From assembly GCA_963771075.1 (NCBI GenBank), contig CAVYSE010000002.1, forward strand, positions 14,714 through 78,713: 64,000 bases of DNA. Reading direction: 5' to 3'. The notes below the pieces were generated by a model. That model did not search any database and was not told the DNA's origin. It saw only the letters and a list, made by a program, of their open reading frames with translations. Shown here one piece after another: positions 2,986-55,436 of this stretch (its first letter is position 1; every line of letters begins with the position of its first letter). Source of the DNA: a candidate division FCPU426 bacterium. GTDB lineage: Bacteria; Oederibacteriota; Muellerivitia; Muellerivitales; Muellerivitaceae. Made by a program: the position numbers and the translations under genes.

Positions 2986-3007
2986 CTGTGACATTGATTT
3001 TTTAAAA

Positions 3008-11347: not shown

Positions 11348-11365
11348 ATAATTTTAAGAAACTAT

Positions 11366-33585: not shown

Positions 33586-33623
33586 AAGGAACATAGGGGC
33601 CAGAGAAGGAACATAGGGGCCAG
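33586..33623. repeat. tandem duplication of an 18-bp unit (AAGGAACATAGGGGCCAG x2) abutting the left inverted repeat of the Y1-transposase element
   Basis: Exact 18-bp direct repeats separated by 2 bp. Confidence 0.6.
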
Positions 33624-40070: not shown

Positions 40071-40097
40071 TGTCCACGATGGGTCCCTATCGTGGCC
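40071..40097. repeat. palindromic cassette-boundary repeat R1 (TGTCCACGATGGGTCCCTATCGTGGCC), 10 bp 3' of the yafQ-like stop; intron A is inserted just beyond it
   Basis: Member of the 28-bp palindrome family. Its right arm is degenerate. Confidence 0.7.
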
Positions 40098-40106
40098 TTA
40101 TACATA

Positions 40107-40376
40107 TCATTCAAATAAATCCGAATGTGTTCCGGTTCTTTCAAAAATGATTTCGCTACCCGAGAGCTTGTAAATCAAAAGCCAATCAGGCTCCAAATGG
40201 CACTCCCAGCGATCCTTGTAGTTCCCTGAGAGTTTATGATTCCGAAATCGAGGTTCTAAAACGCTCTGAGATATCAAACAACTGGCGACATCCTTGAACT
40301 TTTCGACAAGTTTGCCACGCCGAATCATCAATTTAAGATCTTTCTGAAATTGGTTGGTGTAGGAAGGGATAAGCAT
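40107..40376 (-). CDS. type II toxin, RelE/YafQ family mRNA interferase
   Basis: 89 aa RelE/YafQ-like. It overlaps the upstream antitoxin gene by 1 bp. Confidence 0.65.
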   Translation of the reverse strand: MLIPSYTNQFQKDLKLMIRRGKLVEKFKDVASCLISQSVLEPRFRNHKLSGNYKDRWECHLEPDWLLIYKLSGSEIIFERTGTHSDLFE

Positions 40377-40636
40377 CAGATGCCGAGTTTATTGAACATG
40401 TCCTCGGCATTCTTAGTTCGGACCAGATGCCGGCCTTTATCCGTAGACTTGAAAACGGCCTTCGTTTTCGCATTCGGTAGGGTGACATCGAAAGGCAGCC
40501 CGCGCCTCAAAAGGATTTGACTGTAATAAATCGAGATGGCCTGGCTGGCTGTAAGCCCCAATTGGTGTAACAACTTTTCCGTATCGGCCTTCAAATGCGG
40601 TTCTAACCGCGCGCGGACTGTCGCTTCTTTTGCCAT
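40376..40636 (-). CDS. type II antitoxin, DinJ/RelB-like
   Basis: 86 aa with an N-terminal RHH-like segment (ATVRARLEPHLKADTEKLLHQLGLTASQAISIY). Immediately upstream of the toxin. Confidence 0.6.
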   Translation of the reverse strand: MAKEATVRARLEPHLKADTEKLLHQLGLTASQAISIYYSQILLRRGLPFDVTLPNAKTKAVFKSTDKGRHLVRTKNAEDMFNKLGI

Positions 40637-40703
40637 ATAGATCCCCCTTTAAGGAACTAAAGGAAGTGTAGCTCGTTTGGGCTACATTTACAAGCCACTT
40701 CAT

Positions 40704-40731
40704 TGTTCACGATGGGTCCCCGTCGTGGACA
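40704..40731. repeat. palindromic repeat R2 (TGTTCACGATGGGTCCCCGTCGTGGACA)
   Basis: Near-consensus copy, 208 bp 3' of ORF 40939..41952. Its left flank (AAGCCACTTCATT) resembles that of R8. Confidence 0.8.
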
Positions 40732-40938
40732 ATTTCAATTATGATTGCGGCCATAGTATTGCAAGTAGCCGTATCCGATCTGCCCCCTTCATTGGCCTTA
40801 AAAGGGTTTGACCAGGCCCTGCATGTGCACCAACAATATTCGAGAATGGAGTTTTCTTGCGTGACTCTGCCCGCCTAGCCCCTTCTTTAGCGGCTCAGTA
40901 ACGCGTTTCAAACAACGGGCCTTTTCAAAATTCCAACC

Positions 40939-41952
40939 TTATTTCCCGATCACCTCGACTTGAATCTCAAATACCTTATGTTGCCTCTCGTTTCTCCAAT
41001 TGGTTTCCCAAACCGCCACGGTACTCTTCCCCGGTTTCACGGCCTTCAGCCGGTCGAAGTAATATCCTCTGCTAATCCGCACAGACGACCCTGTGTATTT
41101 CTCGGCCGTTGTTTCCGCCACCGATTTCCCCTGAATCGTCAATTTATAAAAAGGCCCCCTATTGCTGCCGGATCGACCTTCCCGCAGGAAAAAAACGTCG
41201 TTCAGGGCCACTTTGTTCACCGGATAAAAATTAAATTCCGTTCGGGCTATGCGTGTATTACCTGAACCATCCACTGCGTCGACCTCAAGGATGTTTTTAC
41301 CGGGTGAAGGAGCCGTTTCGATCGAACCGCTCAAGTGAAAAGCATCCGGACCCTCGGGGGAACATTTCGGATCGACCGGGAGACCATTGATTAAGACCCG
41401 TACACTGGAGGGGACCAAGTAATACCCATCCCAAAGGACCGGGTCGATTTTGGGGGCGAACAAACCTTCTTGGTCATCCGGCGGTCCAACAATGAAAACC
41501 GCCGACAGGGGCCGGTAATCGAATGAAGTTTCAGCCGACCACTCGCCTACACGGATTTTCACTTTCTTGGTACCGGGTGCTCCGGGATAAATATTAAAAT
41601 AAAATTCATAATCTCTCAGTTGCCCCGCTTGGCTGTCACCCCGGCCCCCGAGCCTAAACTCCGCTTTATTACCGTTGATCCACAACTTGGCCTCACCCCG
41701 CGATAGGAGGTCCATTATTTCGCCGTCTGTCTTGTAGTCGTCTTTGGGCAAGGGCACGATGAACCTTAGGGTGGCGGTGCCTGCGTTTATCGGGTTTAAG
41801 TAATTCCAGTCCGAGGCAGAACTTGGGTTCGGCAAAGATACTTCGATCCGCGGTTTGGACATATCCAAGTTTGCGCCGAAACATATGGTTGCGATCAGCA
41901 TTCCCAAAAAAAGGACGACATTAGCCACTACATTGAAAACCGTGCTTTTCAT
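40939..41952 (-). CDS. hypothetical secreted protein (signal peptide / N-terminal TM)
   Basis: N-terminal hydrophobic segment VVANVVLFLGMLIATICFGA. No recognisable domain. Confidence 0.45.
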   Translation of the reverse strand: MKSTVFNVVANVVLFLGMLIATICFGANLDMSKPRIEVSLPNPSSASDWNYLNPINAGTATLRFIVPLPKDDYKTDGEIMDLLSRGEAKLWINGNKAEFRLGGRGDSQAGQLRDYEFYFNIYPGAPGTKKVKIRVGEWSAETSFDYRPLSAVFIVGPPDDQEGLFAPKIDPVLWDGYYLVPSSVRVLINGLPVDPKCSPEGPDAFHLSGSIETAPSPGKNILEVDAVDGSGNTRIARTEFNFYPVNKVALNDVFFLREGRSGSNRGPFYKLTIQGKSVAETTAEKYTGSSVRISRGYYFDRLKAVKPGKSTVAVWETNWRNERQHKVFEIQVEVIGK

Positions 41953-42005
41953 AGACCTTCCCCATTGTTTTTCCCATTTATTAAGTCACACCCTATGCGT
42001 TTACC

Positions 42006-42033
42006 TGTCCACAAAGGGTCCCCGTCGTGGACA
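42006..42033. repeat. palindromic repeat R3 (TGTCCACAAAGGGTCCCCGTCGTGGACA)
   Basis: 41 bp 3' of ORF 42074..42484. Confidence 0.8.
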
Positions 42034-42073
42034 AAAAACCGAAGACCAGTAGTACCCCCGCCTATTTTTTACC

Positions 42074-42484
42074 CTAAGTCCTTTTCTTTTTTAACCAAAC
42101 CCCAAAAAAACATCCAATCGTCCAGGGTGTAATTACAAGAAACAACCAAAATAAAAAGAAATATAAAATACCGTCGCTAAACATTCCGCTGAGGGCAATA
42201 GCCCAAAAAATGATGCTGATAAAAATCAACGGCCAAATAAATTTTCGAACATCCAAACCAATTCTAGAACTCTGGAGAGTACCAGCCAGAAACATAGAAA
42301 TAAAAGGGCCAAAAAATAACTCAATGTATAACCAAAGCGGAAAAGGTCGTCCGTGAGAATAAGGAAGATACTTCTCTAATATATCTTGTAAAAGATTTGC
42401 TATCAGAACAACAGCTATAAAAGAACCCAAGACAGTTCCAATGAAAATAGGCACTGTGTTAATAATTTCTTTACGATTATTCAA
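42074..42484 (-). CDS. hypothetical integral membrane protein (3-4 TM helices)
   Basis: Hydropathy only. Confidence 0.4.
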   Translation of the reverse strand: MNNRKEIINTVPIFIGTVLGSFIAVVLIANLLQDILEKYLPYSHGRPFPLWLYIELFFGPFISMFLAGTLQSSRIGLDVRKFIWPLIFISIIFWAIALSGMFSDGILYFFLFWLFLVITPWTIGCFFGVWLKKKRT

Positions 42485-42538
42485 AATTTATTCCTCTTGC
42501 GAAGGGCGTAACTTATTAGATTTCAATACAAGAAATCA

Positions 42539-43335
42539 TGCAGAGTAGAGCACTGGCGCGGTGGTGTACAGGTCGGCCCTTGGCTGTATCCGCCGTTTCC
42601 GGCTTCGTGCCCGTTTAGGGACTCCCATCACTTCGTTTCCAGCGCCCCCTCGTCAAACCGTACGTGACCTTTTCGATCATACGGCTTTCCGACAACCTTT
42701 CCTCCGGCGGCTTTACAGGTTCGACTTCCCCCTTGGCCACTCGGTATAGTGCCTGTTATCGATGGTCCCGCGCTTTGGTACTACAGAGTTGTTGGCCCTT
42801 TTGGGGCATGCTCCAGCGCCTACCTTCTTTGAGACACATGGTTGAAGCAGGGGTCCTTCCCTCAGGGTGGTTTTGTTGTCCACCCCTTCATCGGTACTGT
42901 GACCCCCTCCGACTTCCTCCCACCCTTGCCTCTTTTCGGTTTTAGCCTTATAGCGGCAAGTCTTTTGGCGGGTAGGATCTCCCAGCTTGCTTGCATAGCC
43001 TTTCCAACATTCCGTTCCCCATACTCCGGAGGACTTGCCCCGCTTGCTACCAGATTCTTCAGCGGGATCGTGGCCTTCGCCAGTAGACACGCGGCTCGGC
43101 ATCCCCTTGCACCTTTCGGTGTCCCATTCACGAAGCGGCAGGATTCACTTGATGTTGCGGACTGCTGGATTGTTCCCTCACTAAATGAGGTTTATGACCC
43201 CGTTTCGGGCAGAACCTCTCGGTCCTACGCCGGGGGCTGACTTCCAGGCTCTCTGGCGATTACCTGGTCAGGATTTGGGCTGGCCCTCTTCGGCCTACTC
43301 CCTCACCTGCTGGCTCTACAAACCTTCGCTGGCAC
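42539..43335 (-). mobile_element. ORF-less deletion derivative (~0.8 kb) of the same group II intron, retaining ~590 bp of the 5' region and ~240 bp of the 3' region including domain V
   Basis: Near-identical to intron A over 39500-40068 and 38091-38330. The RT ORF is deleted. Inserted 2-3 nt after palindrome R4. Confidence 0.75.
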
Positions 43336-43337
43336 GA

Positions 43338-43365
43338 TGTCCACGATGGGTCCCCATCGTGGACA
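43338..43365. repeat. palindromic repeat R4 (TGTCCACGATGGGTCCCCATCGTGGACA, perfect 12-bp arms)
   Basis: 9 bp 3' of ORF 43374..43811. Intron B abuts it. Confidence 0.85.
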
Positions 43366-43373
43366 CCCTAGGT

Positions 43374-43811
43374 TCAATGCAATTCACCGATTACAACTTC
43401 AACATCATCATTTTTCATATATCTAGTAAGGTATTGCCAACCACCGCCCAGGGGTTCTAATCCACTGGACAACCCGTAAGTATCAAGCCACCCACTTGAA
43501 TCTTTTTCCCAAATATAACAATTGGATCTTCCATCGATTTTCACTTTGACTAAATCTTTAGAATTCTTTTTGAGCGTGTTTTTCAGAACAAACGAATCTA
43601 TTTCATTCAGTTCGAAATCGCTGTTCCCATTTAAATCCATTTGAAAATTAACATTCTTTGATAAGTTTAAAAATAAACTTTTTACAGTTTTTAACTGTTC
43701 CAAGTTCTCAATAACAATATTTATCTTTTCTTGTTTATCTGAACTTCTTCGAAGAATCTTAATACTCATTACGGCTCTCCAAACCAGATCATTTTTAATG
43801 CCGCTCAACAC
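43374..43811 (-). CDS. hypothetical protein (low-GC, 145 aa)
   Basis: No recognisable domain. Confidence 0.4.
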   Translation of the reverse strand: MLSGIKNDLVWRAVMSIKILRRSSDKQEKINIVIENLEQLKTVKSLFLNLSKNVNFQMDLNGNSDFELNEIDSFVLKNTLKKNSKDLVKVKIDGRSNCYIWEKDSSGWLDTYGLSSGLEPLGGGWQYLTRYMKNDDVEVVIGELH

Positions 43812-43832
43812 CTAGTCGAACTGGGATTACCT

Positions 43833-43860
43833 TGTTCACGATGGGTCCCCGTAGTGGACA
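43833..43860. repeat. palindromic repeat R5 (TGTTCACGATGGGTCCCCGTAGTGGACA)
   Basis: 20 bp 3' of ORF 43880..44113. Confidence 0.8.
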
Positions 43861-43879
43861 GGCAACTTTCATCACAGGT

Positions 43880-44113
43880 TTATAAATGAACCCCCCAGAG
43901 GTGCGCGTAATAAAACATGAGTAAGAGTATCAAAGCGGCGCAAAAATACAAAATAACCATCACCCAAAAGGCCATTACATCTTTATCCTTCAAGATTGCC
44001 GAACCTGTATAGCCCATTAAAGTCGGAGCCTTACCAGTCATTAAAGAGAAAATAATTAAAAAAACGAAAAGTAATCCCCCGAAAAGAAAAAACCAAGGAT
44101 TAAGTCGATGCAT
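43880..44113 (-). CDS. hypothetical small membrane protein (2 TM helices)
   Basis: Hydropathy only. Confidence 0.35.
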   Translation of the reverse strand: MHRLNPWFFLFGGLLFVFLIIFSLMTGKAPTLMGYTGSAILKDKDVMAFWVMVILYFCAALILLLMFYYAHLWGVHL

Positions 44114-44158
44114 TAATAGTTTCCTTTATTCAACAATGAACTTCAGGGGTTCTTTTTC

Positions 44159-44186
44159 TGTCCACGAAGGCTCCCGGTCGTAGAGA
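44159..44186. repeat. degenerate palindromic repeat R6 (TGTCCACGAAGGCTCCCGGTCGTAGAGA)
   Basis: 60 bp 3' of the GH12 gene. Confidence 0.55.
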
Positions 44187-44245
44187 AGTCTAATGAACAA
44201 ACTCTTGGGATTTACAATTGCTTTAACGCCTGGGGTTTTTCCATT

Positions 44246-45526
44246 TCAATGCAAAACGATGATTTTAAGGATTTTCACCGTCGAGTTACTTCCGTCCACC
44301 GCCTTGACCCGAATGTAGTAAAGACCGTTAGAAAGTGTATTACCCGTCAGGCCGGTCAGATTCCAATGAACCGTAGCGTTTTCGTTAATGGTTTGCGACC
44401 CACCCTCGATTTTACGGAAAGACACCGTGAAGACATCCCAGGCGAGGGCGGTACCAGGAGGGGCTTGCACGTCAAAGTTAACCCCTTCCGTGTTTTTAAC
44501 GGGGTTGGGGTAAGGAAGGCCGATCAAAACGCTCGTGGCGTTGATGGTCGGGGTCATTTCCGGGGTAGAAGTGTTTGACGGCGTCGAGGTGGGTGTGCAG
44601 GTGTTTCCCATGGCGTCCATGCAGGGGACCTGGGTGTATACCGGAGTGGGGGTCACGGTGGGCGTGGGAGTCCCGGTGGGGCTGGGGGTGGGGGAGCAGG
44701 CGTTAACGGACACGGAAAAACTGTTGCTGGTGAAGGGTACGGCGCCGTTTTGGATCTCGATTCCGGCCTCCACCGCGTAGAGGTACCAGGAGGGTTGGAT
44801 GTAACCCCGTGATATGGCGTCCCCGATGAAGGCTTTGATGTCCAGGCCGGTCACGGAGGTCGTTTGGGCGTTGGAAAGGTAACCGATATAGTTCCAGGTG
44901 ACGCTTCCGGAACCCTGGTTCCACTGCCAGACTTCCCAAGGCATGCCGCTGATCGTGGCGGAGCCCTGGTCGTATTCCCATCCGTGGGAGGTGTATTTGA
45001 GCCAGATCATCATTTCCGCGCCGCCGCTGAACCCGGCGGCCCCGCAAGTGTTGTCCGGGCAGAACCAAATGTCGTAGGCCACGTCCCAGACCCCGGTTTG
45101 GGAAACCGAGAAGTTCCAGTCGCTGGTCACGCAGGTCAGGGTGCTGATTGCGGCCGGAAGGGCGCAGGGCGGGGGGCTGGAACCGCCGAAGGCGCTTCCG
45201 TACATGATGTCCGGATAGGAACCCACCGTGTTGGCGCCGCAGGTGGGCCCCTGGGTCACGCTGAAGGCCCCCGTCGTTGTGTCGATATTCATACATTGGG
45301 TGCCGGGGCAGCTGCCATTATTCCAATAATCGGTCTGCACCATATAGGGCCCCATACTAATGGGTACACTCTGGAAGAGCGCACAGGTGTTGACGATGAC
45401 ATCCCCTTCCACGGGACGGGTGCCCCCCCATAGGGCAATGGCCATCAAGGCAGAGAGATATAAGAACGGTTTGGGGGAGAAAAGGAATTTTGGCCGTCTC
45501 AAAGCGTGATTATATCCAAAAAACAT
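44246..45526 (-). CDS. secreted glycoside hydrolase family 12-like protein with a Thr/Pro linker and a C-terminal beta-sandwich sorting-type domain
   Basis: GH12-type catalytic motifs AEMMIWL (E[IL]MIW nucleophile region) and VEAGIE (acid/base region). TPTPT linker. C-terminal NGLYYIRVKAVDGSNSTVKILKIIVLH. Confidence 0.55.
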   Translation of the reverse strand: MFFGYNHALRRPKFLFSPKPFLYLSALMAIALWGGTRPVEGDVIVNTCALFQSVPISMGPYMVQTDYWNNGSCPGTQCMNIDTTTGAFSVTQGPTCGANTVGSYPDIMYGSAFGGSSPPPCALPAAISTLTCVTSDWNFSVSQTGVWDVAYDIWFCPDNTCGAAGFSGGAEMMIWLKYTSHGWEYDQGSATISGMPWEVWQWNQGSGSVTWNYIGYLSNAQTTSVTGLDIKAFIGDAISRGYIQPSWYLYAVEAGIEIQNGAVPFTSNSFSVSVNACSPTPSPTGTPTPTVTPTPVYTQVPCMDAMGNTCTPTSTPSNTSTPEMTPTINATSVLIGLPYPNPVKNTEGVNFDVQAPPGTALAWDVFTVSFRKIEGGSQTINENATVHWNLTGLTGNTLSNGLYYIRVKAVDGSNSTVKILKIIVLH

Positions 45527-45635
45527 TCATGCGCCTCTCGGGCACCCGAATTCATAAACGGGTTTTTCGCCGGGTTCCGTGATGCCCTATCTTTAAGTAT
45601 CCCATTGGGAATATTAAAAAACATATATTTTTACT

Positions 45636-45663
45636 TGTCTTATTCGGGTCCCCAACGAGGACA
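45636..45663. repeat. degenerate palindromic repeat R7 (TGTCTTATTCGGGTCCCCAACGAGGACA)
   Basis: Right arm conserved, left arm diverged. 96 bp 3' of vapC. Confidence 0.5.
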
Positions 45664-45758
45664 GCTCTAATTCCCTTTCATTGGCTCAAAGTGAATTTCG
45701 TCCTCAAGAAGAATCTTCACACAAATGGAGAATGTATCGCTTTCGGCATCCTGCTGGT

Positions 45759-46160
45759 TCACCAGATCACTTTCAGTCCATGGAATGCGCGGATACGTTT
45801 GTCCTTGCTGAGAATAGGGCACCCATACTCTTTGGCAGTGGCCACGAGGATACGATCCGCGGGATCTCCGTGAAATTCACCCTCTAACCGGGTGCTCTTC
45901 ACGGCGATAGCAGGCGATAATGGGATCAATTGGATTTTTGGGAGCTTTAAAGCTTGGTCCACCCATACCTCAACATCCCGATCAAGTTCTAAGCGCTTTT
46001 TCGCCACCAACATGCCTACTTCCCAACAGCTAATGGCATTAACGTAAATGCTGTCGGTAGCGCGAATGGCTTTGGAAGCCTTGGAGGAGAGTTGGGGAGA
46101 GCCCGTTGCCCACCAAATCCAGGCGTGTGTGTCGAGAAGAATCACTGACCCGCTTCCCAA
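45759..46160 (-). CDS. vapC: PIN-domain toxin VapC
   Basis: LLDTHAWIWW ... acidic residues of the PIN fold, 133 aa. Overlaps the upstream Phd-type antitoxin gene. Confidence 0.75.
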   Translation of the reverse strand: MGSGSVILLDTHAWIWWATGSPQLSSKASKAIRATDSIYVNAISCWEVGMLVAKKRLELDRDVEVWVDQALKLPKIQLIPLSPAIAVKSTRLEGEFHGDPADRILVATAKEYGCPILSKDKRIRAFHGLKVIW

Positions 46161-46369
46161 ACGTCCTCAATTGGCGAAAGAATGTCCTTTTCACTCAAGA
46201 CGCTTCCGTGAAGCGAAGTACCGTGTTTGCCTTTCTCCTTCAAAACCGGGCCGATTTTAGCCACTGGAATTCCCCGTTTGGTCACTACGATAGTCTCGTG
46301 GGCTCTGCTCACTTCATCCAGTAGCGACAGGCATTTGGCCTTGAATTCACCGGCGGCGATGGTTTTCAT
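46142..46369 (-). CDS. Phd/YefM family antitoxin
   Basis: MKTIAAGEFKAKCLSLLDEVSRAHETIVVTKRGIPVAKI. Start assigned to the internal Met. Confidence 0.65.
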   Translation of the reverse strand: MKTIAAGEFKAKCLSLLDEVSRAHETIVVTKRGIPVAKIGPVLKEKGKHGTSLHGSVLSEKDILSPIEDVWEAGQ

Positions 46370-46527
46370 AAAATCTCCTTTGTGACCACTTATCATGGTC
46401 ATGTTCCCACGGGAGAAAGAAGAAGTCAAGCCGACCCCTATTCGCAATGCTTGGAGGCGCAATGGAACCGGATAGGGGGATATGGGGACATAAAACGAAA
46501 TAATTTGAAGGGAGCCCTAATTTCTTT

Positions 46528-46896
46528 TTAACGCGCCGTGCGGGTTTTAACGCCGAGTGAGCGGCTGACGGCCCATAAGGCCTTATCCCGAGTCCAAAAT
46601 TCACATTGATTCGAGTAACAGGAAAACAATAAATGAGCGTCCACCCAATTAATGCCTTTACCGTTGAGGCGGTGCTTCTCAACCCAGTCCAAGACTTCCG
46701 GATTTAAAGCGGGATACAGGAGGGGCAGTAATTGGAGGTCATGCAGGAATTGGCTCCTGTTTTTTAAATGTCCCAGGGCCAGTTCCCCAATGATAAAGGG
46801 GTGGGTGAGGGCTTCATCCTTTTCCAAAAGGGAAATGAGAAACGCATTCGGGGAATGGAGGTGGTCGACCCACACCGAAGTGTCGACCAGCATCAC
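46528..46896 (-). CDS. vapC: PIN-domain toxin VapC (second copy, unrelated sequence)
   Basis: MMLVDTSVWVDHL..., 122 aa. 4-bp overlap with the upstream VapB gene. Confidence 0.75.
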   Translation of the reverse strand: MMLVDTSVWVDHLHSPNAFLISLLEKDEALTHPFIIGELALGHLKNRSQFLHDLQLLPLLYPALNPEVLDWVEKHRLNGKGINWVDAHLLFSCYSNQCEFWTRDKALWAVSRSLGVKTRTAR

Positions 46897-47093
46897 GCTT
46901 TAGCGGCTCGCCGCCTGCGGGAAGGAGCGGAAGCGCGGGGATCGGTCCCCCCCATGGCCGCAAGCCGCTTGGCGGCTTCCCGGCGGATGAGGGATTCAAG
47001 ACCCATCCGGACAAGGGAGGTCTTTTCGGATACTCCCGTCATTTGACCGGCTTTTTTAATTAGCTGGTCATCGATGTTCAAGGTTGTTCTCAT
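46893..47093 (-). CDS. vapB: VapB family antitoxin
   Basis: MRTTLNIDDQLIKKAGQMTGVSEKTSLVRMGLESLI (classic VapB N-terminus). Start assigned to the internal Met. Confidence 0.65.
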   Translation of the reverse strand: MRTTLNIDDQLIKKAGQMTGVSEKTSLVRMGLESLIRREAAKRLAAMGGTDPRASAPSRRRRAAKA

Positions 47094-47296
47094 ATGCATC
47101 AATATGCCGTTTTGATATGCATCTGTCAAGGAGCGATTCCGGGGATCTTAAAAGCGATCAATTGGAACCGACTCGGGAAAAATCTTCTCAAATGCCGGAA
47201 TGGAAGTTCAAGGATTTCATCGATAACTGCTCGCTGAAGAGAATTAAATACCCGGTGTGGAAAAGAATTACAAAATCATGTTAGGCCACTTACAGT

Positions 47297-47324
47297 TGTT
47301 CACCCCGGGTCCCCGTCGTTGACA
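47297..47324. repeat. palindromic repeat R8 (TGTTCACCCCGGGTCCCCGTCGTTGACA)
   Basis: 143 bp 3' of the flotillin gene. Its left flank GGCCACTTACAGT resembles that of R2. Confidence 0.75.
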
Positions 47325-47466
47325 ACAAAAGTGTTTCCAACAGGTTCAAGACATCCATCTATTCCCCATTAGCCATTTCAAGATTAAAAGCCCGGTCTTT
47401 GTTCAGGCGACCGGGCTTTTTGAATTACAGGAATCCGGGCAAACTACCGTTAAAACCGGGGATGAA

Positions 47467-49398
47467 TTAATTGGGTTTCTTTTTTTCTCCGAGATATTTC
47501 ATGAGGGTGGCCGCAAGGCCCTCGACACCGCCCCCATTTCCACCGGTCACCAAAATATCCGGAACGACTTTGATATTCTTTTCCGCCAAAGCCTTTACGA
47601 TATTCACGATGGCCGTGGGGGTCTGCCCGAAGGCGTCCACCTGGGCCTTAAACGCCTTGGCGTTGGCCATACCGACCGCCTCAATCTCGGCGCCCTTGGC
47701 CGTACCTGTTTGTTGGATGTAAGAGGCTTCCCCGCGCCCTTCGGCGTCACGGGCATTCGCGTTGTTGGTTTTGATGTCGATGCCCACTTGCGATTTGGCC
47801 AATTCAGCCTGCATATCCGCCGTCCCCTTGGCCTTTTCGGTTTTGATCCTTTCCTCCTGTGCCTCGCGCTGCATGGAAAATGTGGTCTTTTCCTGGTTGG
47901 CGATCTCACGGGTGGTGAGCACCTTGACCAGGTCGCCGGGCAGAACCACGTCCTGGATATAAACGCCTTTAGTCTCGATCTTATAGTCCTTCAACTTGGC
48001 CTCGATATGGGCAAAGGCCTCCTCTTGCACCCCTTGGCGGGTTTCAATGAAGCGAATGGCGGGCATGCTTTGGATCTTGTCGCGGAAATGGTTGCCGACC
48101 GCCGCCTGCAAGACCTCATTCACCAGGTTCTTCATGCTTCCCACGATGGAAATGACCATCGGCGCCTGGGTATCCGCCACGTGGATCTGCACCTGCAGGT
48201 CGATGGAAAAGACGAACCCTTCCCGGCTCTTGGCCACGATAGCCTTGAGGAACTGGTCCAGCTTGTGGGCCTCGGAGACCGCATCGGCCCAATTCAGGTT
48301 CAGGATATAGGTCGGGACGATCTCGGCCTGATAACAGTGGGGGTTGATGGGGTACTTGCCCGTGCGCAAGGGTTCTTCCCAGATACCGCGGTGCCCAGGC
48401 CGCACCAAGGTGCCAAACTTGAATTCCACCCCCGAGGTGTCCTCGGAGAAAAGCCCGACGTAGGACTTGATGACCGCAACCTCGCCCTGTTCCACCACCA
48501 GCATGGGCACCAAGTTGACCGACACCAGGAAGGGGTTCAGGTTGTAGGCCCCATATAGCAGGGGGTCATGCTGAAGACCGATCTTGCCGCCGTTGTCCAG
48601 GAAAGCCTGGAAATCCTGGTAGTTGTTGTGCAGGCCGTTCTTGGTACCAAGGTTAGCCTCCACCAGTTCGGCGTTCTTGGAACCGCCCTTTTCCAGCTTC
48701 TGCAGGTCGTCGAAATCCCCCAGCCGCCCCGCGATACTGCCCGGAGGCAGGGGCCCTCCCTCGTAAGTGGTGACCACGCCCACCACGTCGATGAGCTTCC
48801 CATCCTGGGTGGGCAGTGGCTCGATGCGGATGACGTTGAGCTTCTGGGGGTCCAGGCCGAAGGGCCGGTTTTTGCCGTCCGCGCCTTCCTGGATGCTCGA
48901 ATGGTCGGGCATGATGGGGATGCCGTAGGTCTTGTCCTTCGTGATGACCACGAAGGCGACGGGATGCAGTGGCAAAAGGGTGCCCGGGGGCAGGACGGGC
49001 CTTTGGATGCCTTTTTGTCCGCCCGCCGTGATAAAGGTCTCCAGGTCGGTGAAATGGCCGAATTCCTTTTTGTAAACAGCCGATTTGGCCCCCACGGGAA
49101 TAGCCTCACCCACTTGGGCGAAAACCACACCGATCTGTCCCGCGGGAATCTGGACCCACGGGAATTTCCGCACGCTGTAAAGGACCCAGAACTTGAGACG
49201 GATACCTGGCATGAGCATTTGGGCCTGGAATCCCGCCTCACCCTTGAAGGCGATGGGATTGTCACCCTTGAGTTTCGCGAAGGAGAACCTTTTGAGCACA
49301 AGCCCCACCTCGGTGGGACCAATGACATGAATGGATGGCAGGATGAGAATGGCCAACAACAAGATTGAACCCACCGCCAAAATCAAATAGAGATCCAT
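47467..49398 (-). CDS. flotillin-like SPFH/band-7 domain protein
   Basis: N-terminal TM, SPFH domain, and a long Ala/Glu/Lys-rich coiled coil (EAQEERIKTEKAKGTADMQAELAKSQ). Confidence 0.65.
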   Translation of the reverse strand: MDLYLILAVGSILLLAILILPSIHVIGPTEVGLVLKRFSFAKLKGDNPIAFKGEAGFQAQMLMPGIRLKFWVLYSVRKFPWVQIPAGQIGVVFAQVGEAIPVGAKSAVYKKEFGHFTDLETFITAGGQKGIQRPVLPPGTLLPLHPVAFVVITKDKTYGIPIMPDHSSIQEGADGKNRPFGLDPQKLNVIRIEPLPTQDGKLIDVVGVVTTYEGGPLPPGSIAGRLGDFDDLQKLEKGGSKNAELVEANLGTKNGLHNNYQDFQAFLDNGGKIGLQHDPLLYGAYNLNPFLVSVNLVPMLVVEQGEVAVIKSYVGLFSEDTSGVEFKFGTLVRPGHRGIWEEPLRTGKYPINPHCYQAEIVPTYILNLNWADAVSEAHKLDQFLKAIVAKSREGFVFSIDLQVQIHVADTQAPMVISIVGSMKNLVNEVLQAAVGNHFRDKIQSMPAIRFIETRQGVQEEAFAHIEAKLKDYKIETKGVYIQDVVLPGDLVKVLTTREIANQEKTTFSMQREAQEERIKTEKAKGTADMQAELAKSQVGIDIKTNNANARDAEGRGEASYIQQTGTAKGAEIEAVGMANAKAFKAQVDAFGQTPTAIVNIVKALAEKNIKVVPDILVTGGNGGGVEGLAATLMKYLGEKKKPN

Positions 49399-49571
49399 AG
49401 GGTTTATACCTACCTTTCAATTAAAAAACATTTCCTGTTTAAATCTTCCAGCCAAGTTGACGGGAAATTCAACGCTTATTATATTCCTGCTCTGCGAGGC
49501 AGGCTCTTAAATATCTTTACGCTGTTACAGGGTGGAAACATATCCAAAAGACCAATTCCTTATCATTTCTA

Positions 49572-49599
49572 TGTCAATTAGGGGTTCCCGTCGTGGACA
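49572..49599. repeat. palindromic repeat R9 (TGTCAATTAGGGGTTCCCGTCGTGGACA)
   Basis: 13 bp 3' of ORF 49612..49845. Confidence 0.7.
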
Positions 49600-49611
49600 A
49601 AGAAATAATGG

Positions 49612-49845
49612 TTAAGGCTCGATTAAGGATTTCGCTTTTTCGGTCTTCCGAACGCGGGACTGCCAAAGGCTAAAGGCCAGCAGTATCACCCCTTCGATGC
49701 TTGATACCATGTCAAACTTCAGGCTTGGAAAAAGCGGAAAAAGTATCGCATCGAGGATGCCCATGAAAAGCCCGCCCAAGAAGAGCCGCAACATCAGGTT
49801 TTTCAAGTATTGAACTAACTTTTTAAACTTCAAAATCAACGCCAA
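49612..49845 (-). CDS. hypothetical small membrane protein (2 TM helices), overlapping the 3' end of the Sel1 gene by 10 bp
   Basis: Hydropathy only. Confidence 0.35.
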   Translation of the reverse strand: MALILKFKKLVQYLKNLMLRLFLGGLFMGILDAILFPLFPSLKFDMVSSIEGVILLAFSLWQSRVRKTEKAKSLIEP

Positions 49846-52811
49846 CCGGACTGGTGATAGGTATTCACTTTGTCGGCGGCGTCTTTATATCCCTGGTTTG
49901 CGGCCAATTGAAACCAATAAAGCGCCTTGGGACAGTTGTAGGGGGTGTTCTCGGGCGGGGTTAAAAGGGTGCCATCACAATAAGAGTCGTACAAATCACC
50001 CAATTTATATTCAGCCTCCGCATTCCCCATATTCCCCGCGTAGGTGTACCATTCGATGGCCTTCGCCTCATCAAAATGTCCGCTGTCGGTCGCCATATAA
50101 TAATCCCCGTTTTGGACGGCCTGTTCCGCCGTGGGGGTTGAACTCGAATCCCCCTGGCTGGCGCTGCTTGCGGCGCCCGTGTCGGAAGCCGCCGTCGCGT
50201 TCTTTAAATTATCCAAACATAATTGGGCGTGGGCAAAACCCTGGTTCGCGGACAATTGATACCAATATTTCGCCTTGGCCAAATCCTTCGGCATGCCCGT
50301 TCCCTCCTGGCAGCGCCAACCGATCTCGAACTCGGCCTGGAAATATCCCTGGTCCGCCGACTTCTGGAGCCAGATTACCGCCTTCGCATCGTCCAGCGGG
50401 ACCCCGTGCCCCCCCGCATAACATTCCCCGAGGATATACTCCCCGGTGAGGTTGCCCTGGGCCGCCGATTTGCTCCCCCATTCATAAGCCTTCACGTAAT
50501 CAGCATCCGTGCCCCGGTTGAAATATTGGATGGCTAACTGGCCTTCTCCCTCCGCGTTGCCCTGTTCGGCCGACTGTTGGTAATCTTCAAAGGCTTGGTC
50601 GTTCTGGCCCGCTTTGAGGGCGTCATTCCCCTGTTGCAAGAGGGACGCACCCCCGTCCCCCGAGGAAGCGGCGGCGGCCGCCTTGGATTTTTGTGAATTG
50701 GAATTGAGGACGTCCAATAGTTTTTGCGCTCCGGGATAATTTTGATCCACGGACAATCGAAGCCAATAGAGGGTTTTATCCGGGTCCTTGGCGAGTCCAT
50801 AGCCGAATTGGTAACAGGTCGCCAAGGTATATTCGCCCCTCGCGTCCCCATGGTCCGCCGACTTTTGAAGCCAATCCACCGCCATGCCGTAGTCGCTCTT
50901 GACCCCGAGCCCGGATAAATAGATCAACCCCATTCCACATTCCCCGCTTCCATCACCCTGGTCCGCGGCTTTTTTGAACCATTTTTGGACCGGGACATAA
51001 TGATCTCTCTTGATCCCCTGGCCCTCGCAATAGAGCCAGCCAAGCGCGGCTTGGGCCCGGGCGTTTCCCAATGAGGCCGATTTTTTAAAGAACCCGAGGG
51101 CCTTTTTCAAATGGCCGGCCTTTTGAGCGTCCAGGCCTTTTTGATAATCGGCATGCCCTGGAGCCTTGGGATCCTCTGGCGCAGGGGCAGGATTTCCATT
51201 CTTTTTTTGAGAAGACAGGTTCGAGCCGCCGGTAGCGTTTGGGGAAGAAGTCTTTTCCGAAGTGGTTTGGGAATCCAAGTCCGAAAATGCGCCCTTATAG
51301 GGCGGCGTGATCCCCGAGTTCAAATCGGACAACATTTCCTTGGCTTCCCCATTACCTTGCTTGGCGGCCTTTTCCAGCCATTGTTTGGCCTTTTCCATAT
51401 CCTGTTCCAGGCCAAAATGTTCGTTCAACTGACCACCTTTGGTGGCGTAAAACTTTCCCAGCACAAGTTCAGCGGGCGCGTAGTTTTGCGCGGCTGATTT
51501 TTCAAGCCAATCCAAACCCTTCTCTCGGTCGTCCTCCACTTCTTTGTCCCATTTTTCCTTATCGTTTCCTTCGGTCACCCACATTCCCCCAATGTTCCCG
51601 GCGATCACGGTAGTAAATAGGTTGGCGGCCATGCGGTACTGTCCCTCGGCATTACCCCCCTTGGCCGACCATTCGTACATCCTTGCGGCTTCTTTATAGT
51701 CCTTCTTTTCATCCGCTTCTTTTGCCCTCTTTAAAGCCTCTTCGGGGGATAGGGAATCCTGATTTTGGGGAGCCGCCGGGGAGGAGGCTTGATTCAATTT
51801 TTGCAAGTTCGTGACCGCTTCAGTGTTGCCGAGAGCGGCCGCCTTTTCGAATAAACTCCTGGCCCGGTCTTCGTCCTTGATTCCTAACCCACAGGGATCG
51901 TTTTGATAATAGATCCCCATCCAATTCAAACCGGGGGGATAATTTTGATCCGCTGATTTTTGGATCATGGCCGCATATTCACGGCATTTATCGGGGTCCC
52001 AGTGTTTGGTTTGATCCGCTAACCCTTGCATTTCCATTGCGAACCAGTTTCCGGTACCTTCTTTATACTCCGCCTCGGCATCCCCCTGGGTCGCCGCCTG
52101 GGTACCGGACTCCCCCGTCGCGGTACCTCCCAGGTTTTTCAAATCACTTTGCGCGCTTGCATTTTTTTGATCGGCGGCCATTTGCAGCCAATGCCGGGCG
52201 GTTTCCAGGTTTTTATCCACGCCCGCCCCGTATTCGTAACACTGCCCCAGGCCGTACTGGCCGTAGGCGTTGCCCTGAGCGGCGGATTTTTGGTACCACT
52301 CCAGCGCCTTCGCGTAATCCTTAGCCGCCCCGTGTCCAGTGAAATAGCTTTCACCCAACCCATATTCTCCGTAAGCGTTGCCCGTGTCCGCCGATTTTCG
52401 ATACCACTTCACCGCCTCGGTATAATCCTGGGTTTCGCCCATGCCGTAATCGTAGGCGCAGCCTATACCGTACTGCCCGCCCGACTCGTTCTGGGCCGCT
52501 GATTTCTTGAACCATTCCACTGCGGTCGCGTAATCCTTTTCCACTCCCCATCCGTTCCAGTAGCACCAACCCAGGAGCTGTTCCCCGGTCGGATTTCCCG
52601 CGGCGGCGGACTGTTGGTAATCGCTAAAGGCCTCATCCATCCGCCCGGCCTGCTGGGCCCCCAGGCCGTTCGTGTTGAGCGCGATGGGATCGGCACTTGA
52701 ACTGGAAGGGGGCGCCTCCGCCTGGCAGGCGGCGGTTGTGGCCGAAAGCCACACCCAGGCGGCCGCCCCAAGGATGACGAACAAACCTTTCCCTATGCGT
52801 GCACGAACCAT
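49836..52811 (-). CDS. secreted Sel1-like repeat (SLR) protein, 991 aa
   Basis: Signal peptide, then more than 15 Sel1 repeats (e.g. GNAYGEYGLGESYFTGHGAAKDYAKALEWYQKSAAQG). Confidence 0.75.
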   Translation of the reverse strand: MVRARIGKGLFVILGAAAWVWLSATTAACQAEAPPSSSSADPIALNTNGLGAQQAGRMDEAFSDYQQSAAAGNPTGEQLLGWCYWNGWGVEKDYATAVEWFKKSAAQNESGGQYGIGCAYDYGMGETQDYTEAVKWYRKSADTGNAYGEYGLGESYFTGHGAAKDYAKALEWYQKSAAQGNAYGQYGLGQCYEYGAGVDKNLETARHWLQMAADQKNASAQSDLKNLGGTATGESGTQAATQGDAEAEYKEGTGNWFAMEMQGLADQTKHWDPDKCREYAAMIQKSADQNYPPGLNWMGIYYQNDPCGLGIKDEDRARSLFEKAAALGNTEAVTNLQKLNQASSPAAPQNQDSLSPEEALKRAKEADEKKDYKEAARMYEWSAKGGNAEGQYRMAANLFTTVIAGNIGGMWVTEGNDKEKWDKEVEDDREKGLDWLEKSAAQNYAPAELVLGKFYATKGGQLNEHFGLEQDMEKAKQWLEKAAKQGNGEAKEMLSDLNSGITPPYKGAFSDLDSQTTSEKTSSPNATGGSNLSSQKKNGNPAPAPEDPKAPGHADYQKGLDAQKAGHLKKALGFFKKSASLGNARAQAALGWLYCEGQGIKRDHYVPVQKWFKKAADQGDGSGECGMGLIYLSGLGVKSDYGMAVDWLQKSADHGDARGEYTLATCYQFGYGLAKDPDKTLYWLRLSVDQNYPGAQKLLDVLNSNSQKSKAAAAASSGDGGASLLQQGNDALKAGQNDQAFEDYQQSAEQGNAEGEGQLAIQYFNRGTDADYVKAYEWGSKSAAQGNLTGEYILGECYAGGHGVPLDDAKAVIWLQKSADQGYFQAEFEIGWRCQEGTGMPKDLAKAKYWYQLSANQGFAHAQLCLDNLKNATAASDTGAASSASQGDSSSTPTAEQAVQNGDYYMATDSGHFDEAKAIEWYTYAGNMGNAEAEYKLGDLYDSYCDGTLLTPPENTPYNCPKALYWFQLAANQGYKDAADKVNTYHQSGWR

Positions 52812-52991
52812 GACCGCCTCCCCTTTACGACCAATTAATAAAAAAACCGCGAAAGCCTTAGGCTCGTTCTCCCTTTATTCTATTCCTTCAGTTTGAGGGA
52901 TCGGCGTCGTATCCCTTTTTATCGTATTTGCCGCTGGGAATGCCAAAGACAGTAAACCAATATCAATGAAGACTCAAGGCCGACCACCCCA

Positions 52992-53019
52992 TCGAATTTA
53001 AGATTCCCCATCGTGGACA
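52992..53019. repeat. degenerate palindromic repeat R10 (right arm CCCCATCGTGGACA conserved)
   Basis: 28 bp 3' of the RelE-like gene. Confidence 0.5.
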
Positions 53020-53046
53020 GGTAATATGAATAAATTTCACATTCGG

Positions 53047-53319
53047 TTAAAGATTCCGTAGAATTCTTTCTAGTTCTTTTCGGTCAAGGACACGCAAAAC
53101 AACCACTCCCTTTTTGGTGGGTTCGAAGAGGGACCTATAATCCCCGGTTCGTAAACGGTAAAGGTTCTTATAGCCTTCTAGTTTTTTTACTTTGGGGGGG
53201 CCGGGCCAAGGACGAGTTTGAAGGATTTTCAGTTCGACCAGGATTTCACCTGCGACGGTTTTTTCAAGGGCCTTCAAATCCCTCAAGGCACGGGGTGAAA
53301 GCTCAACGAGGAGGGACAA
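53047..53319 (-). CDS. RelE/ParE family toxin (probable TTG start)
   Basis: ELSPRALRDLKAL ... YRLRTGDYRSLFEPTKKGVVVLRVLDRKE. The long ORF's N-terminal extension overlaps the antitoxin gene and looks non-coding. Confidence 0.55.
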   Translation of the reverse strand: MSLLVELSPRALRDLKALEKTVAGEILVELKILQTRPWPGPPKVKKLEGYKNLYRLRTGDYRSLFEPTKKGVVVLRVLDRKELERILRNL

Positions 53320-53320
53320 A

Positions 53321-53575
53321 TCAGAGCCCCAGCTTCTTGCGGGCTTCCGAAAGGGAAACCCCGCCTTTCTTGGCGTATTCCTTCCTCGACTCCTCGATTT
53401 GATCCATAAACTCGGGCTGTTTATAAACCAAATCCTCGATTTCATCCTCGGTCAGGTGAAGAAGGACGGCCTGGGGTTTTCCATGGTTCGTAATGACGTA
53501 TTTTTCCCCGTTTTCCACACCTTTCATGACAGCTGGGGTTTTCAAGCGCAAATCACGCATATTCACGAATTTCAA
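53321..53575 (-). CDS. Phd/YefM family antitoxin
   Basis: MKFVNMRDLRLKTPAVMKGVENGEKYVITNHGKPQAVLLHL. Confidence 0.65.
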   Translation of the reverse strand: MKFVNMRDLRLKTPAVMKGVENGEKYVITNHGKPQAVLLHLTEDEIEDLVYKQPEFMDQIEESRKEYAKKGGVSLSEARKKLGL

Positions 53576-53661
53576 GAGCGGGTCCTTTGTTACTTATTTG
53601 AGTAACATTATAATAAATCCGAGCTGAACGAAAAGCAAGCGTACCGATATAAGATATAGTT

Positions 53662-53689
53662 CGTTCACGATAGGTCCCCGTCTTGGACA
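53662..53689. repeat. palindromic repeat R11 (CGTTCACGATAGGTCCCCGTCTTGGACA), between the CoA-disulfide reductase stop and the first cassette
   Basis: Most distal copy of the family within the window. Confidence 0.7.
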
Positions 53690-53774
53690 ATCTTCAGGTA
53701 AGGGTTTCTCCCCAAAAAATAATTTGAATTTTTATTCGGATGGTTAGCGGATTATTTTATTAAATTTCGACAAT

Positions 53775-55436
53775 CTAAACCCCATTCGGGTAGACCCGTA
53801 AATAAGAAAGATAACCGCCCGGTAGATTTCGTGCTTTAAAGCCGTTTTGCAAAAGCACCCGGTTAGCGTAATAAGACCTCTGTCCCACCCGACAATTGAC
53901 CCATATTTCCTTGTCTTTCGGTAATTCCCCCAACCGGCTTCTTAAATCATTCAAGGGTATGTTGATGGCTCCTGGGATATGGCCGGTTTGGAATTCTTCC
54001 GGATCGCGGACGTCCAAAATAATTTTGTCTGGAGTGGGCTGAATATCACCCCAGGAAGCCAGTTCCAGGTCGCCCCTCATCACGTTGGATGCGATCATGC
54101 CCGCTACGTTCACCGGGTCCTTGGCCGCGCCATATTGGGGCGCGTAACAGAGCTCCGCTTCCTCCATGTCATAGACCGTGCCGCCCATTTGAATAATGGT
54201 GGAAACCACATCCACACGCTTCTCAACCCCTTCCTCCCCTACCGCCTGGAAACCCAATACCTTTCCGACCGTTCGATCAAACAAAAGTTTGATGATGATG
54301 GGCTTGGCGTCCGGGTAATAAGCAACGTGATGGCCGGGATGCAAGAAAATGGCGGCGTAATTTTTGTAGCCGGAAGTTTTGAGGGTTTTTTCGCTTTCTC
54401 CCGTCATGGCTGCAGTCAGGCCAAAAAAACCGCATACCGCCGTAGATTGAACCCCCCGGAATTGCCGCGGCTTGCCGGATATAACATCCGCCGCGATTCT
54501 TCCCTGGCGGTTCGCCGGCCCCGCCAGGGGAATGAGCCGGGTCACACCCAATGGCAGGGTTTTGACTTCCACCGCGTCCCCCACAGCGAAAATGGAAGGA
54601 TCACTCGTTCGCATTTCATCATCGACCTTGATTCCTCCCAGCGCCCCCAATTCCAAACCCGCCTCTTTAGCCAGGGTAGTTTCAGGCCTTACGCCGATGG
54701 CTAAGATGACCATGCCCGTCTGAATTTGAGCACCTGATTTGGTTTTTACGATCAGGCCGTTGGAAGTCGCCTCAAACGAAGCCGCGCCGTCATTTAAACG
54801 TAAATCCACGCCCCTTTGCCTCAGGCGTTCATGGACCGGCTCCGCCATTTCCGGGTCCAGGGGAGGCATGGCCTGGGAACTCATTTCCAGGAGGGTGACA
54901 TGAAGGCCCTTGTGAACCAGGTTCTCGGTCATTTCCAAACCCACAAATCCCCCGCCCACCACCAGGGCATCCTTGACATTCTTTTCCCTGATCCATTCCC
55001 GGATATGGCGTGAATCGGGGATATTCCGAAGGGTGAAAATGCCTGGCAAATCCACGCCCGGCAGGGGCGGCTTGATGGGCTTGGCTCCCGGGGAAAGAAC
55101 CAGGGCGTCATAAGTTTCGGTGTAAACTTTTCCGCCGGCGAGGTCCTTAACCGACAATTCTTTCTTTGTTCGGTCAATGGAAAGCACCTCGGTATCCACT
55201 TTGACCTGGATATTGAACCTATCCCGGAACAGGGCGGGAGTGGCCACCAACAGTTTTTTCTCCTCGGTAATAACCTCGCCCACGTAATAGGGCAAACCGC
55301 AGTTGGCGAAGGAGACGTATTTACCCCGATCCAGAAGGAGGATTTCCAGGTCTTCCCTTTGGCGCCTTAACCTGGCCGCGCAGGACGCTCCACCCGCCAC
55401 ACCGCCCACGATGACCACTTTTTTCAGGTTATCCAT
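53775..55436 (-). CDS. CoA-disulfide reductase / NADH oxidase-type pyridine nucleotide-disulfide oxidoreductase fused to a C-terminal rhodanese domain
   Basis: FAD site VVIVGGVAGGASCAARL, redox Cys in SFANCGLPY, and a C-terminal rhodanese domain (ILDVRDPEEFQTGHIPGAINIP...CRVGQRS). Confidence 0.8.
   Translation of the reverse strand: MDNLKKVVIVGGVAGGASCAARLRRQREDLEILLLDRGKYVSFANCGLPYYVGEVITEEKKLLVATPALFRDRFNIQVKVDTEVLSIDRTKKELSVKDLAGGKVYTETYDALVLSPGAKPIKPPLPGVDLPGIFTLRNIPDSRHIREWIREKNVKDALVVGGGFVGLEMTENLVHKGLHVTLLEMSSQAMPPLDPEMAEPVHERLRQRGVDLRLNDGAASFEATSNGLIVKTKSGAQIQTGMVILAIGVRPETTLAKEAGLELGALGGIKVDDEMRTSDPSIFAVGDAVEVKTLPLGVTRLIPLAGPANRQGRIAADVISGKPRQFRGVQSTAVCGFFGLTAAMTGESEKTLKTSGYKNYAAIFLHPGHHVAYYPDAKPIIIKLLFDRTVGKVLGFQAVGEEGVEKRVDVVSTIIQMGGTVYDMEEAELCYAPQYGAAKDPVNVAGMIASNVMRGDLELASWGDIQPTPDKIILDVRDPEEFQTGHIPGAINIPLNDLRSRLGELPKDKEIWVNCRVGQRSYYANRVLLQNGFKARNLPGGYLSYLRVYPNGV

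Follow-up and report, generated by a model that had tools for sequence, protein, structure and literature searches.

What kind of genetic element places the same short palindrome behind one small gene or gene pair after another? The question is raised by a stretch of 64,000 nt, referred to here as the window, on a contig of a candidate division FCPU426 bacterium (CAVYSE010000002.1, assembly GCA_963771075.1, positions 14,714-78,713). Within 13.6 kb of it (40071-53689), a 28-bp near-palindrome occurs 11 times, always in the same orientation. An earlier note on this DNA had located these 11 copies and read the arrangement as an integron-like cassette array without an integrase in view, that is, a CALIN locus (attC cluster without intI); its alternative was a locus-restricted family resembling repetitive extragenic palindromes (REP/BIME). 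The comparisons reported here point to a different answer: with a probability of roughly 0.58, the palindrome is the junction site of a palindrome-based mobile gene-cassette system that is specific to FCPU426 and whose recombinase acts in trans.

On the gene strand, which is the minus strand of the window, the site reads TGTCCACGACGGGGACCC(A/G)TCGTG(G/A)ACA or, by parts, T-TGTCCACGAC-GGGGACCC-GTCGTGGACA-A; inverted outer hexamers (TGTCCA/TGGACA) flank a short core that is conserved and has an asymmetric GA/TC at its centre. The 28-bp palindrome described earlier thus stands, but not its division into 12-bp arms with a 2-nt centre; a parse of 13 + 2 + 13 or 10 + 8 + 10 fits better. The first site of the array (site 1, 53662-53689; gene strand TGTCCAAGACGGGGACCTATCGTGAACG) lies 86 bp past the stop of a core CoA-disulfide reductase/rhodanese gene. 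It is followed, in the direction of transcription, by site 2 (52992-53019, degenerate in its 3′ half), site 3 (49572-49599), site 4 (47297-47324), site 5 (45636-45663, degenerate in its 3′ arm), site 6 (44159-44186, degenerate), site 7 (43833-43860), site 8 (43338-43365, a perfect palindrome save for its centre), site 9 (42006-42033), site 10 (40704-40731), and the last, site 11 (40071-40098), the 5′ end of which is mutated (AGGCCACGAT...). All 11 copies were recovered as members of one repeat family. The consensus first proposed is matched by five copies at three mismatches or fewer, where shuffled sequences lead one to expect 0.00. Each copy is placed between minus-strand units, and the distance from stop codon to repeat given earlier (9-210 bp) is roughly right. 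A twelfth site, decayed to TGTCC only (∼46486-46490), lies between the two middle toxin-antitoxin pairs; another array (L073) retains an intact site at this position in a homologous VapBC cassette. As the earlier note had claimed, the repeat is absent elsewhere in the window: a search independent of the consensus (outer hexamers plus centre) detected neither full nor half sites in the other ∼50 kb.

The site is not a peculiarity of this locus. Genomes (one per species) were scanned with the 18-mer GGGTCCCCRTCGTGGACA, which yielded at least 109 stretches (the counts are lower bounds), and a scan of metagenomes added at least 120 further stretches from peat, bog, and soil samples; like the window, all of these data are metagenome assemblies. 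Almost all stretches with multiple matches belonged to genomes labeled FCPU426 or to bins of the same sample series. Single matches in Streptomyces and similar genomes were at the estimated chance level (about 35), and viral contigs contained no match to the 18-mer. Co-oriented, gene-spaced arrays of the 18-mer were present in at least 14 FCPU426 genomes; in one genome the sites numbered at least 44 and were distributed over at least 13 contigs, and in long-read genomes separate arrays lie hundreds of kilobases apart on the same contig. The arrays start directly after ordinary chromosomal genes. Sites of one array point the same way in the window and at nearly all loci, are spaced by a median of 833 bp (interquartile range 597-1331 bp), and share their polarity with the cargo: of 164 inter-site segments, 158 had their longest ORF on one and the same strand with respect to the site (p = 1.6e-40). 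The 150 cassette ORFs matched 118 Pfam families, with PIN, MazF, ParE, YafQ, TacA, VapB, HicB, and GNAT in the lead. The likeness of the cargo to that of sedentary integrons, suggested earlier from the window, extends across the lineage, where toxin-antitoxin pairs, GNAT acetyltransferases, and orphan genes predominate.

At the orthologous locus of four relatives (L247, L248, L249, and L251), the array is missing. Homology with them stops at 53711-53802, 22-113 bp short of site 1, and no 28-mer site is present in the 10 kb downstream of their CoA-disulfide reductase orthologue. Other co-oriented small genes are found there (AHSA1, GNAT, thioredoxin, ParB_N, Mrr, and an arsenic-type operon); the position is variable even without the cassette system. 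The repeat family is thus lineage-wide and occurs at many loci, yet it is confined to arrays of accessory genes. The earlier alternative of a locus-restricted REP/BIME-like family was half right: the search for copies beyond the locus, which the note had proposed, removed the restriction to one locus, but the copies it revealed are clustered in accessory-gene arrays and not placed after housekeeping genes.

If the palindromes are junctions, the segments between them should be found in different company in different arrays. An all-against-all alignment of the array stretches returned many matches that start and end exactly at sites in both partners. The last unit of the window, taken from site to site (40071-40731, encoding YafQ/RelB), recurs in two other loci (L018 and L082) with 82-84% identity and with different neighbors. 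Similar unit matches connect L017 with L042 (88%), L058 with L062 (100% over 1020 bp, in different bins), and L062 with L078 (100% over 920 bp, in two arrays of one genome). Linkage was quantified for 433 oriented sites from genome and metagenome loci. Among the 155 site pairs with one homologous flank, 151 differed in the other flank, and the four that shared both flanks represented the same locus resampled; thus, neighbors almost never travel together. The comparison with other genomes, recommended at the outset, accordingly found repeat-bounded units beside unrelated neighbors. Strain variation at the window locus itself was sought by exact-protein look-ups, which gave only identical fragments, broken at repeats or introns. 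Taken together, the alignments show that cassettes are mobile and support the view of the array as a series of co-oriented gene units, each ending in a repeat, that move independently.

Where within the site units are joined could be deduced from rare sequence variants, the sharing of which was compared between pairs of sites with a common upstream or a common downstream flank. In the 5′ arm (positions 1-10), rare variants were shared in 40 of 121 cases when the upstream flank was shared versus 6 of 79 when the downstream flank was shared (background 3%; p = 2.5e-5). The 3′ arm (positions 19-28) behaved in the opposite way, with 37 of 265 versus 57 of 208 (background 12%; p = 3e-4), and in the centre (positions 11-18) rare variants were shared with neither flank (0 of 22 each; background about 1%). 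The 5′ arm hence goes with the unit upstream of the site and the 3′ arm with the one downstream, which places the joint between positions 10 and 19. The pair L058/L062 illustrates this directly: in the downstream site, the identity extends over the 5′ arm and on through the centre, where it ends (...GGGGACCC | GGATTGGACA versus ATCGTGGACA). A unit therefore consists of the 3′ arm of one site, a gene or small operon, and the 5′ arm and GGGGACCC centre of the next site.

Five sites hold a conserved, ORF-less insert of 40-50 nt with GGGGACCC on both sides (L006 at 5019, L017 at 4907 and 5992, L020 at 5728, and L048 at 2233; sequence CTTCGATG...CTCAGGGCAAATTATAAGT...CCAATCT), the outcome expected when a tiny unit is inserted by exchange in the centre. 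The insert is an ORF-less mini unit, possibly a promoter. A different non-coding element of ∼190 nt occupies the same position twice in L073 (2543 and 5909).

These observations suggest a mechanism. For units to be excised and inserted, DNA would be broken and rejoined within the 8-bp centre, which is nearly invariant, and the asymmetric central GA/TC would set the polarity, from which the uniform direction of the sites, and hence of the genes, would follow. The enzyme would act in trans, encoded away from the arrays, and would be a dimeric site-specific recombinase, either a serine recombinase, with a 2-nt crossover, or a tyrosine recombinase, with a 6-8-bp overlap; judged from known sites, either would suit a short conserved core that contains an asymmetric GA and lies between inverted TGTCCA arms. 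Serine recombinases act at crossover sites (res site I, hix/gix, att) that are roughly 26-30 bp long and have two inverted arms of 12-13 bp, with an asymmetric central dinucleotide setting the polarity. The FCPU426 site resembles them in size, in its inverted arms, and in its central dinucleotide, and differs in that no cognate serine recombinase was found in the array loci and no accessory sites were seen.

A recombinase was sought among the genes of the window and of the array loci. When E. coli XerD and PinE were used as phmmer queries, no match was obtained among 1598 ORFs from the genome array loci and the window, and among 1543 ORFs from metagenome loci, only one resolvase and one integrase fragment (92 aa) were matched. 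According to Pfam, neither the flanks of the window, in agreement with the earlier statement that no integrase was in view, nor ∼25 array starts contain an integrase; only ordinary genes and insertion sequence (IS) transposases are found there, the neighbors of array starts including LeuA, an aldo-keto reductase, a solute-binding protein, a P-type ATPase, and RodZ. The IntI-type recombinase that the earlier note had asked for is therefore missing from the window, from these array starts, and from the array-locus ORFs, save for that 92-aa fragment.

Both matches reside in one locus, L122. The resolvase (11023-11712) is a serine recombinase of 229 aa with a Resolvase domain, encoded on the opposite strand and ending 61 bp past the last site of a six-site array; the Phage_integrase fragment (921-1196, 92 aa) is at the other end, adjoining a gene for a REP-associated tyrosine transposase (RAYT). 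The resolvase was rejected as the cognate enzyme: its family is very abundant in metagenomes, with thousands of homologues that are 70-79% identical, and their contexts either lack sites or have sites 10 kb away. Elsewhere, these homologues are found in the context of conjugative elements. At another locus (L001, CAVYRH010000015.1, 1-1186), cas1 (TIGR00287, 251 bits), with a Cas2-like ORF behind it, starts 45 bp past a site that is either internal to an array or its last. Cas1 as the cassette enzyme was likewise dismissed, as the gene occurs at one of ∼180 loci and Cas1-type integration would duplicate whole repeats, not exchange them at the centre; the pair is treated as cargo or a neighbor.

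Several points weigh against a dedicated cassette system. No recombinase was identified beside ∼180 array stretches, and clustering of the ORFs of 136 array loci (749 kb) showed that only cargo families recur, with no recurrent family outside the cargo. The inner part of the 3′ arm is weakly conserved, which is unusual for the site of a symmetric dimer. Eighteen invariant bases serving as a homology substrate would likewise put crossovers in the conserved part of the site. The site pairs of the linkage test are not independent of each other, and there is no direct evidence of excision, neither circles nor, within a population, sites that are empty. Metagenome assemblies are the source of all the data, but chimeric joins are an unlikely explanation, because a repeat of this size does not reach the length of an assembly k-mer and the picture from long-read genomes is the same.

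Some of these points would be accounted for if the palindrome were a lineage-specific, REP-like hairpin with another primary role (stabilizer of mRNA 3′ ends, terminator free of a U tract, or binding site of a host protein), the shuffling being a by-product of general or short-homology recombination between the many identical copies of 18-28 bp. We consider this unlikely, but it is the main rival of the cassette reading. It would agree with the position of the site in the 3′-UTR of every unit, with crossovers falling in the longest invariant stretch, with the failure to find a dedicated recombinase in the array loci, and with the strong folding of the consensus, which as single-stranded DNA reaches −15.4 kcal/mol (z = −5.8) with no bulged bases. 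The variation among copies, however, speaks against it. The centre (GGGGACCC) is conserved together with the 5′ arm (TGTCCACGAC) and with the hexamer TGGACA in the outer 3′ part, and the inner 3′ arm (positions 19-22) is freely variable; pairs 7-10/19-22 are of the Watson-Crick type in only 38-53% of distinct copies. Compensatory changes were not seen; the variation is one-sided and breaks the pairing, the mismatches form symmetric internal loops that differ from copy to copy, and common variants fold weakly (−5 to −6.5 kcal/mol). The position table puts the conserved element at 28-30 bp, with no conservation in the flanks, and at E ≤ 1, Rfam matched nothing except the introns described below. 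The site is not an intrinsic (Rho-independent) terminator, which would be a GC-rich hairpin with a T/U tract behind it on the transcribed strand: none of the 11 window copies was called terminator-like, and no T/U tract follows the site, where the gene-strand sequence is A-rich.

The distribution also speaks against a REP-like hairpin, as the site is missing after the housekeeping genes in ∼50 kb of the window and at the orthologous loci of relatives, and the strict co-orientation and the identity of the 18-mer across species would be left unexplained. Moreover, 28 bp is at the lower size limit for RecA-type exchange. REP/BIME families and their RAYTs do share with the FCPU426 sites that they are short, conserved, lineage-specific extragenic palindromes downstream of genes, and a RAYT-like gene is present in the window. 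They differ in being scattered genome-wide in hundreds of extragenic copies, often as inverted pairs, whereas the FCPU426 sites are found in gene-spaced, co-oriented arrays of variable regions, coincide with the boundaries of shuffled units, and have neither inverted REPIN pairs nor a GTAG head.

The RAYT-like gene (33626-34573, minus strand) deserves attention of its own. It encodes a protein of 315 aa with an IS200-like Y1 domain and a DnaA-C-like helix-turn-helix, which is recognized by the NCBIfam model for REP-associated tyrosine transposases with 92 bits (cut-off 80). The gene is part of a ∼1-kb unit (33616-34630) bounded by perfect inverted 15-mers, TGTAGGCCTGGCCCC, which have the GTAG head, are unrelated to the 28-mer, and were found only around this gene; just downstream of the unit, CTGGCCCCTATGTTCCTT is repeated twice in tandem. 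Homologues are encoded in or beside the arrays of L006 (86% amino acid identity), L122, L131, and L160. Identity of the 28-mer with a REP/RAYT system was rejected, as the repeats flanking the RAYT-like gene are TGTAGGCCTGGCCCC and the copies of the 28-mer, by lower-bound counts, are clustered in direct arrays.

A single-strand system could nevertheless be imagined, in which a nuclease of the HUH (Y1) type, such as the RAYT-like protein, nicks near the tip of the hairpin and transfers strands between hairpins, giving rise to single-stranded circles of one unit. Units running from tip to tip would agree with the observed linkage, the protein scores above its cut-off and is encoded 4 kb from the array, close homologues accompany the four other arrays just named, and in the window copies the plus-strand hairpin is more stable than that of the gene strand (−8.7 versus −5.1 kcal/mol, through G·T pairs). 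Yet a 13-bp stem with a loop of 2-4 nt offers little loop to nick, no covariation preserves the stem, the RAYT gene is near only five of ∼180 array stretches, and it comes with inverted repeats of its own. Known Y1 transposases (IS200/IS605, RAYT) cut beside hairpins, not at the tip. This mechanism is therefore regarded as improbable.

Still less probable is that the sites are of the Xer/dif type, that is, chromosomal counterparts of the dif modules of Acinetobacter moved by the host's XerC and XerD, although there are parallels. Both systems have 28-bp sites with unequally conserved arms, one arm of the FCPU426 site being far better conserved than the other and the whole parsable as 11-6-11; in both, the crossover is within the site, in its central region here, and small accessory modules, frequently toxin-antitoxin pairs, are shuffled, between replicons in the case of dif modules, by a recombinase encoded elsewhere. 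The sequences, however, are unrelated: the site has no likeness to the arms of the dif/pdif consensus (..TTCGTATAA / TTATGTTAAAT), and its consensus does not resemble the listed pdif sites, which have dif-like XerC/XerD arms (...CGTATAA / TTATGTTAAAT) on either side of a 6-bp spacer (PMC13141974). Furthermore, dif modules, in which C and D modules take turns, need alternating, inversely oriented sites, whereas the FCPU426 sites are direct in the window and at nearly all loci; pdif spacers are variable, whereas the FCPU426 centre is invariant; and the FCPU426 arrays are chromosomal and belong to another phylum. If a single chromosome held dozens of dif copies in direct orientation, deletions driven by Xer would presumably follow.

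Two group II introns bear on the comparison with integrons. Rfam (RF02003 and RF00029) places both on the gene strand, each starting 2 nt past a repeat (...GTGGACA TC|GTGCC). Intron 1 (38092-40068, minus strand), 2 nt past site 11, is full-length and contains an ORF for a reverse transcriptase/maturase (38246-39835; Pfam RVT_1 and GIIM, NCBIfam TIGR04416). Intron 2 (42540-43335, minus strand; 3′ end assigned by homology with intron 1), 2 nt past site 8, has no ORF, and copies 95% identical to it adjoin sites of L062 and of L080. In L072, two identical ORF-less introns (2945-3647 and 6853-7555) represent a second family (Rfam RF02005); they interrupt the palindrome between its positions 19 and 20, and directly behind the intron end the sequence continues with the 3′ arm TCGTGGACA. 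Sites have thus been entered by two intron families, one 2 nt past the site (window, L062, and L080) and one within it (L072), and all of these introns are in sense orientation. The presence of two group II introns at the repeats, noted earlier, holds, but targeting in the manner of IIC-attC introns does not: those are inserted in the bottom strand of attC, against the direction in which the cassette gene is transcribed (PMC3001079), whereas the window introns are co-oriented with the genes. The introns would be secondary to the cassette system, having homed to an abundant conserved sequence.

In other respects, the resemblance to sedentary chromosomal integrons and CALIN is close: head-to-tail arrays of small, mostly single-gene units of cassette size, every one of them closed by a recombination-site repeat; genes and sites that are strictly co-oriented; dominance of toxin-antitoxin, acetyltransferase (GNAT), and orphan genes; units common to genomes in different contexts; ORF-less units; and group II introns at the sites. 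The attC sites of integrons are imperfect palindromes of about 55-140 nt around a variable centre, and, with the crossover at the R′ end, almost all of an attC stays with the upstream gene when it moves. That the array is a true integron, with very short attC sites served by an IntI encoded elsewhere in the genome, is nonetheless close to refuted, as the site is a simple palindrome of 28-30 bp conserved in sequence, without R″/R′ cores (RYYYAAC/GTTRRRY), R/L boxes, or extrahelical bases, a deficiency that the earlier note had already recognized and that the consensus table and folding bear out, as its variation is one-sided and non-compensatory, as central exchange leaves half a site at each end of a unit, as the array starts examined have no intI or attI and, one fragment apart, neither they nor the array loci encode a tyrosine recombinase, as many dispersed arrays occur per genome, and as the introns are sense.

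The gene content of the window array, all of it on the minus strand as stated earlier, is in keeping with the cargo of the other loci, and Pfam reproduced the gene identities that had been read from the translations (YafQ/RelB, PIN with Phd, PIN with VapB, ParE/RelE with Phd, GH12, SPFH/flotillin, and Sel1). Unit 1 (53047-53575) comprises a Phd/YefM antitoxin (53321-53575) and a ParE/RelE toxin (within 53047-53445). Unit 2 (49612-52811) encodes a 991-aa Sel1-repeat protein (49836-52811) and a 77-aa membrane ORF (49612-49845); the many diverged 108-nt repeats in the Sel1 gene reflect the ordinary periodicity of a repeat protein, and Sel1 proteins are recurrent cargo or neighbors of other arrays. 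Unit 3 (47467-49398) specifies a 643-aa SPFH/Band 7 (flotillin-like) protein. Unit 4 (45759-47129) is a fusion of two, VapB (46893-47129) with a PIN toxin (46528-46896) and Phd (46142-46462) with another PIN toxin (45759-46160); its VapBC part shares 89% identity with a segment of L073 (1706-2425) that has intact bounding sites. Unit 5 (44246-45526) encodes a secreted GH12 glycoside hydrolase of 426 aa, and unit 10 (40107-40636) a RelB/DinJ antitoxin (40376-40636) with a YafQ toxin (40107-40376).

The remaining units were assigned to no family (by Pfam and, for units 7 and 9, also NCBIfam). They consist of a 77-aa membrane ORF (unit 6, 43880-44113), a 145-aa ORF (unit 7, 43374-43811), a 136-aa membrane ORF (cargo of unit 8, 42074-42484), and a 337-aa secreted ORF (unit 9, 40939-41952). 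Directly upstream of site 9, at 42040-42060 on the minus strand, there is a terminator-like hairpin with a T tract (CGGGGGTACTACTGGTCTTCG GTTTTTT), so that this unit has a candidate terminator of its own besides the palindrome. Apart from the array, at the window's left end, a gene for a type IV coupling protein (TraG/TrwB-like) has a tRNA-Asp gene as its neighbor (865-2484 and 3008-3085) and may mark the edge of an integrative conjugative element.

Ideas on how bacteria accumulate single genes and rearrange them have come mainly from integrons, and to our knowledge dif modules are confined to Acinetobacter plasmids. The literature that was searched contained no description of the repeat sequence or of arrays such as these. 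It is conceivable, if somewhat short of an even bet, that they represent a third independent cassette platform, with a 28-bp site, a central crossover, a recombinase encoded elsewhere and possibly new to cassette capture, many arrays per chromosome, a phylum-wide distribution, and unit-by-unit movement of toxin-antitoxin, defence, and secreted-protein genes. The concrete question raised is which trans-acting enzyme recognizes TGTCCACGACGGGGACCC. A recombination site so small and defined by its sequence could also become a tool, and the 18-mer signature permits the accessory gene pool of FCPU426 to be retrieved directly from metagenomes. If the palindrome is indeed the junction site of a mobile gene-cassette system, an uncultured phylum of soil and peat would possess a cassette system of its own, and cassette arrays would have evolved more than once.

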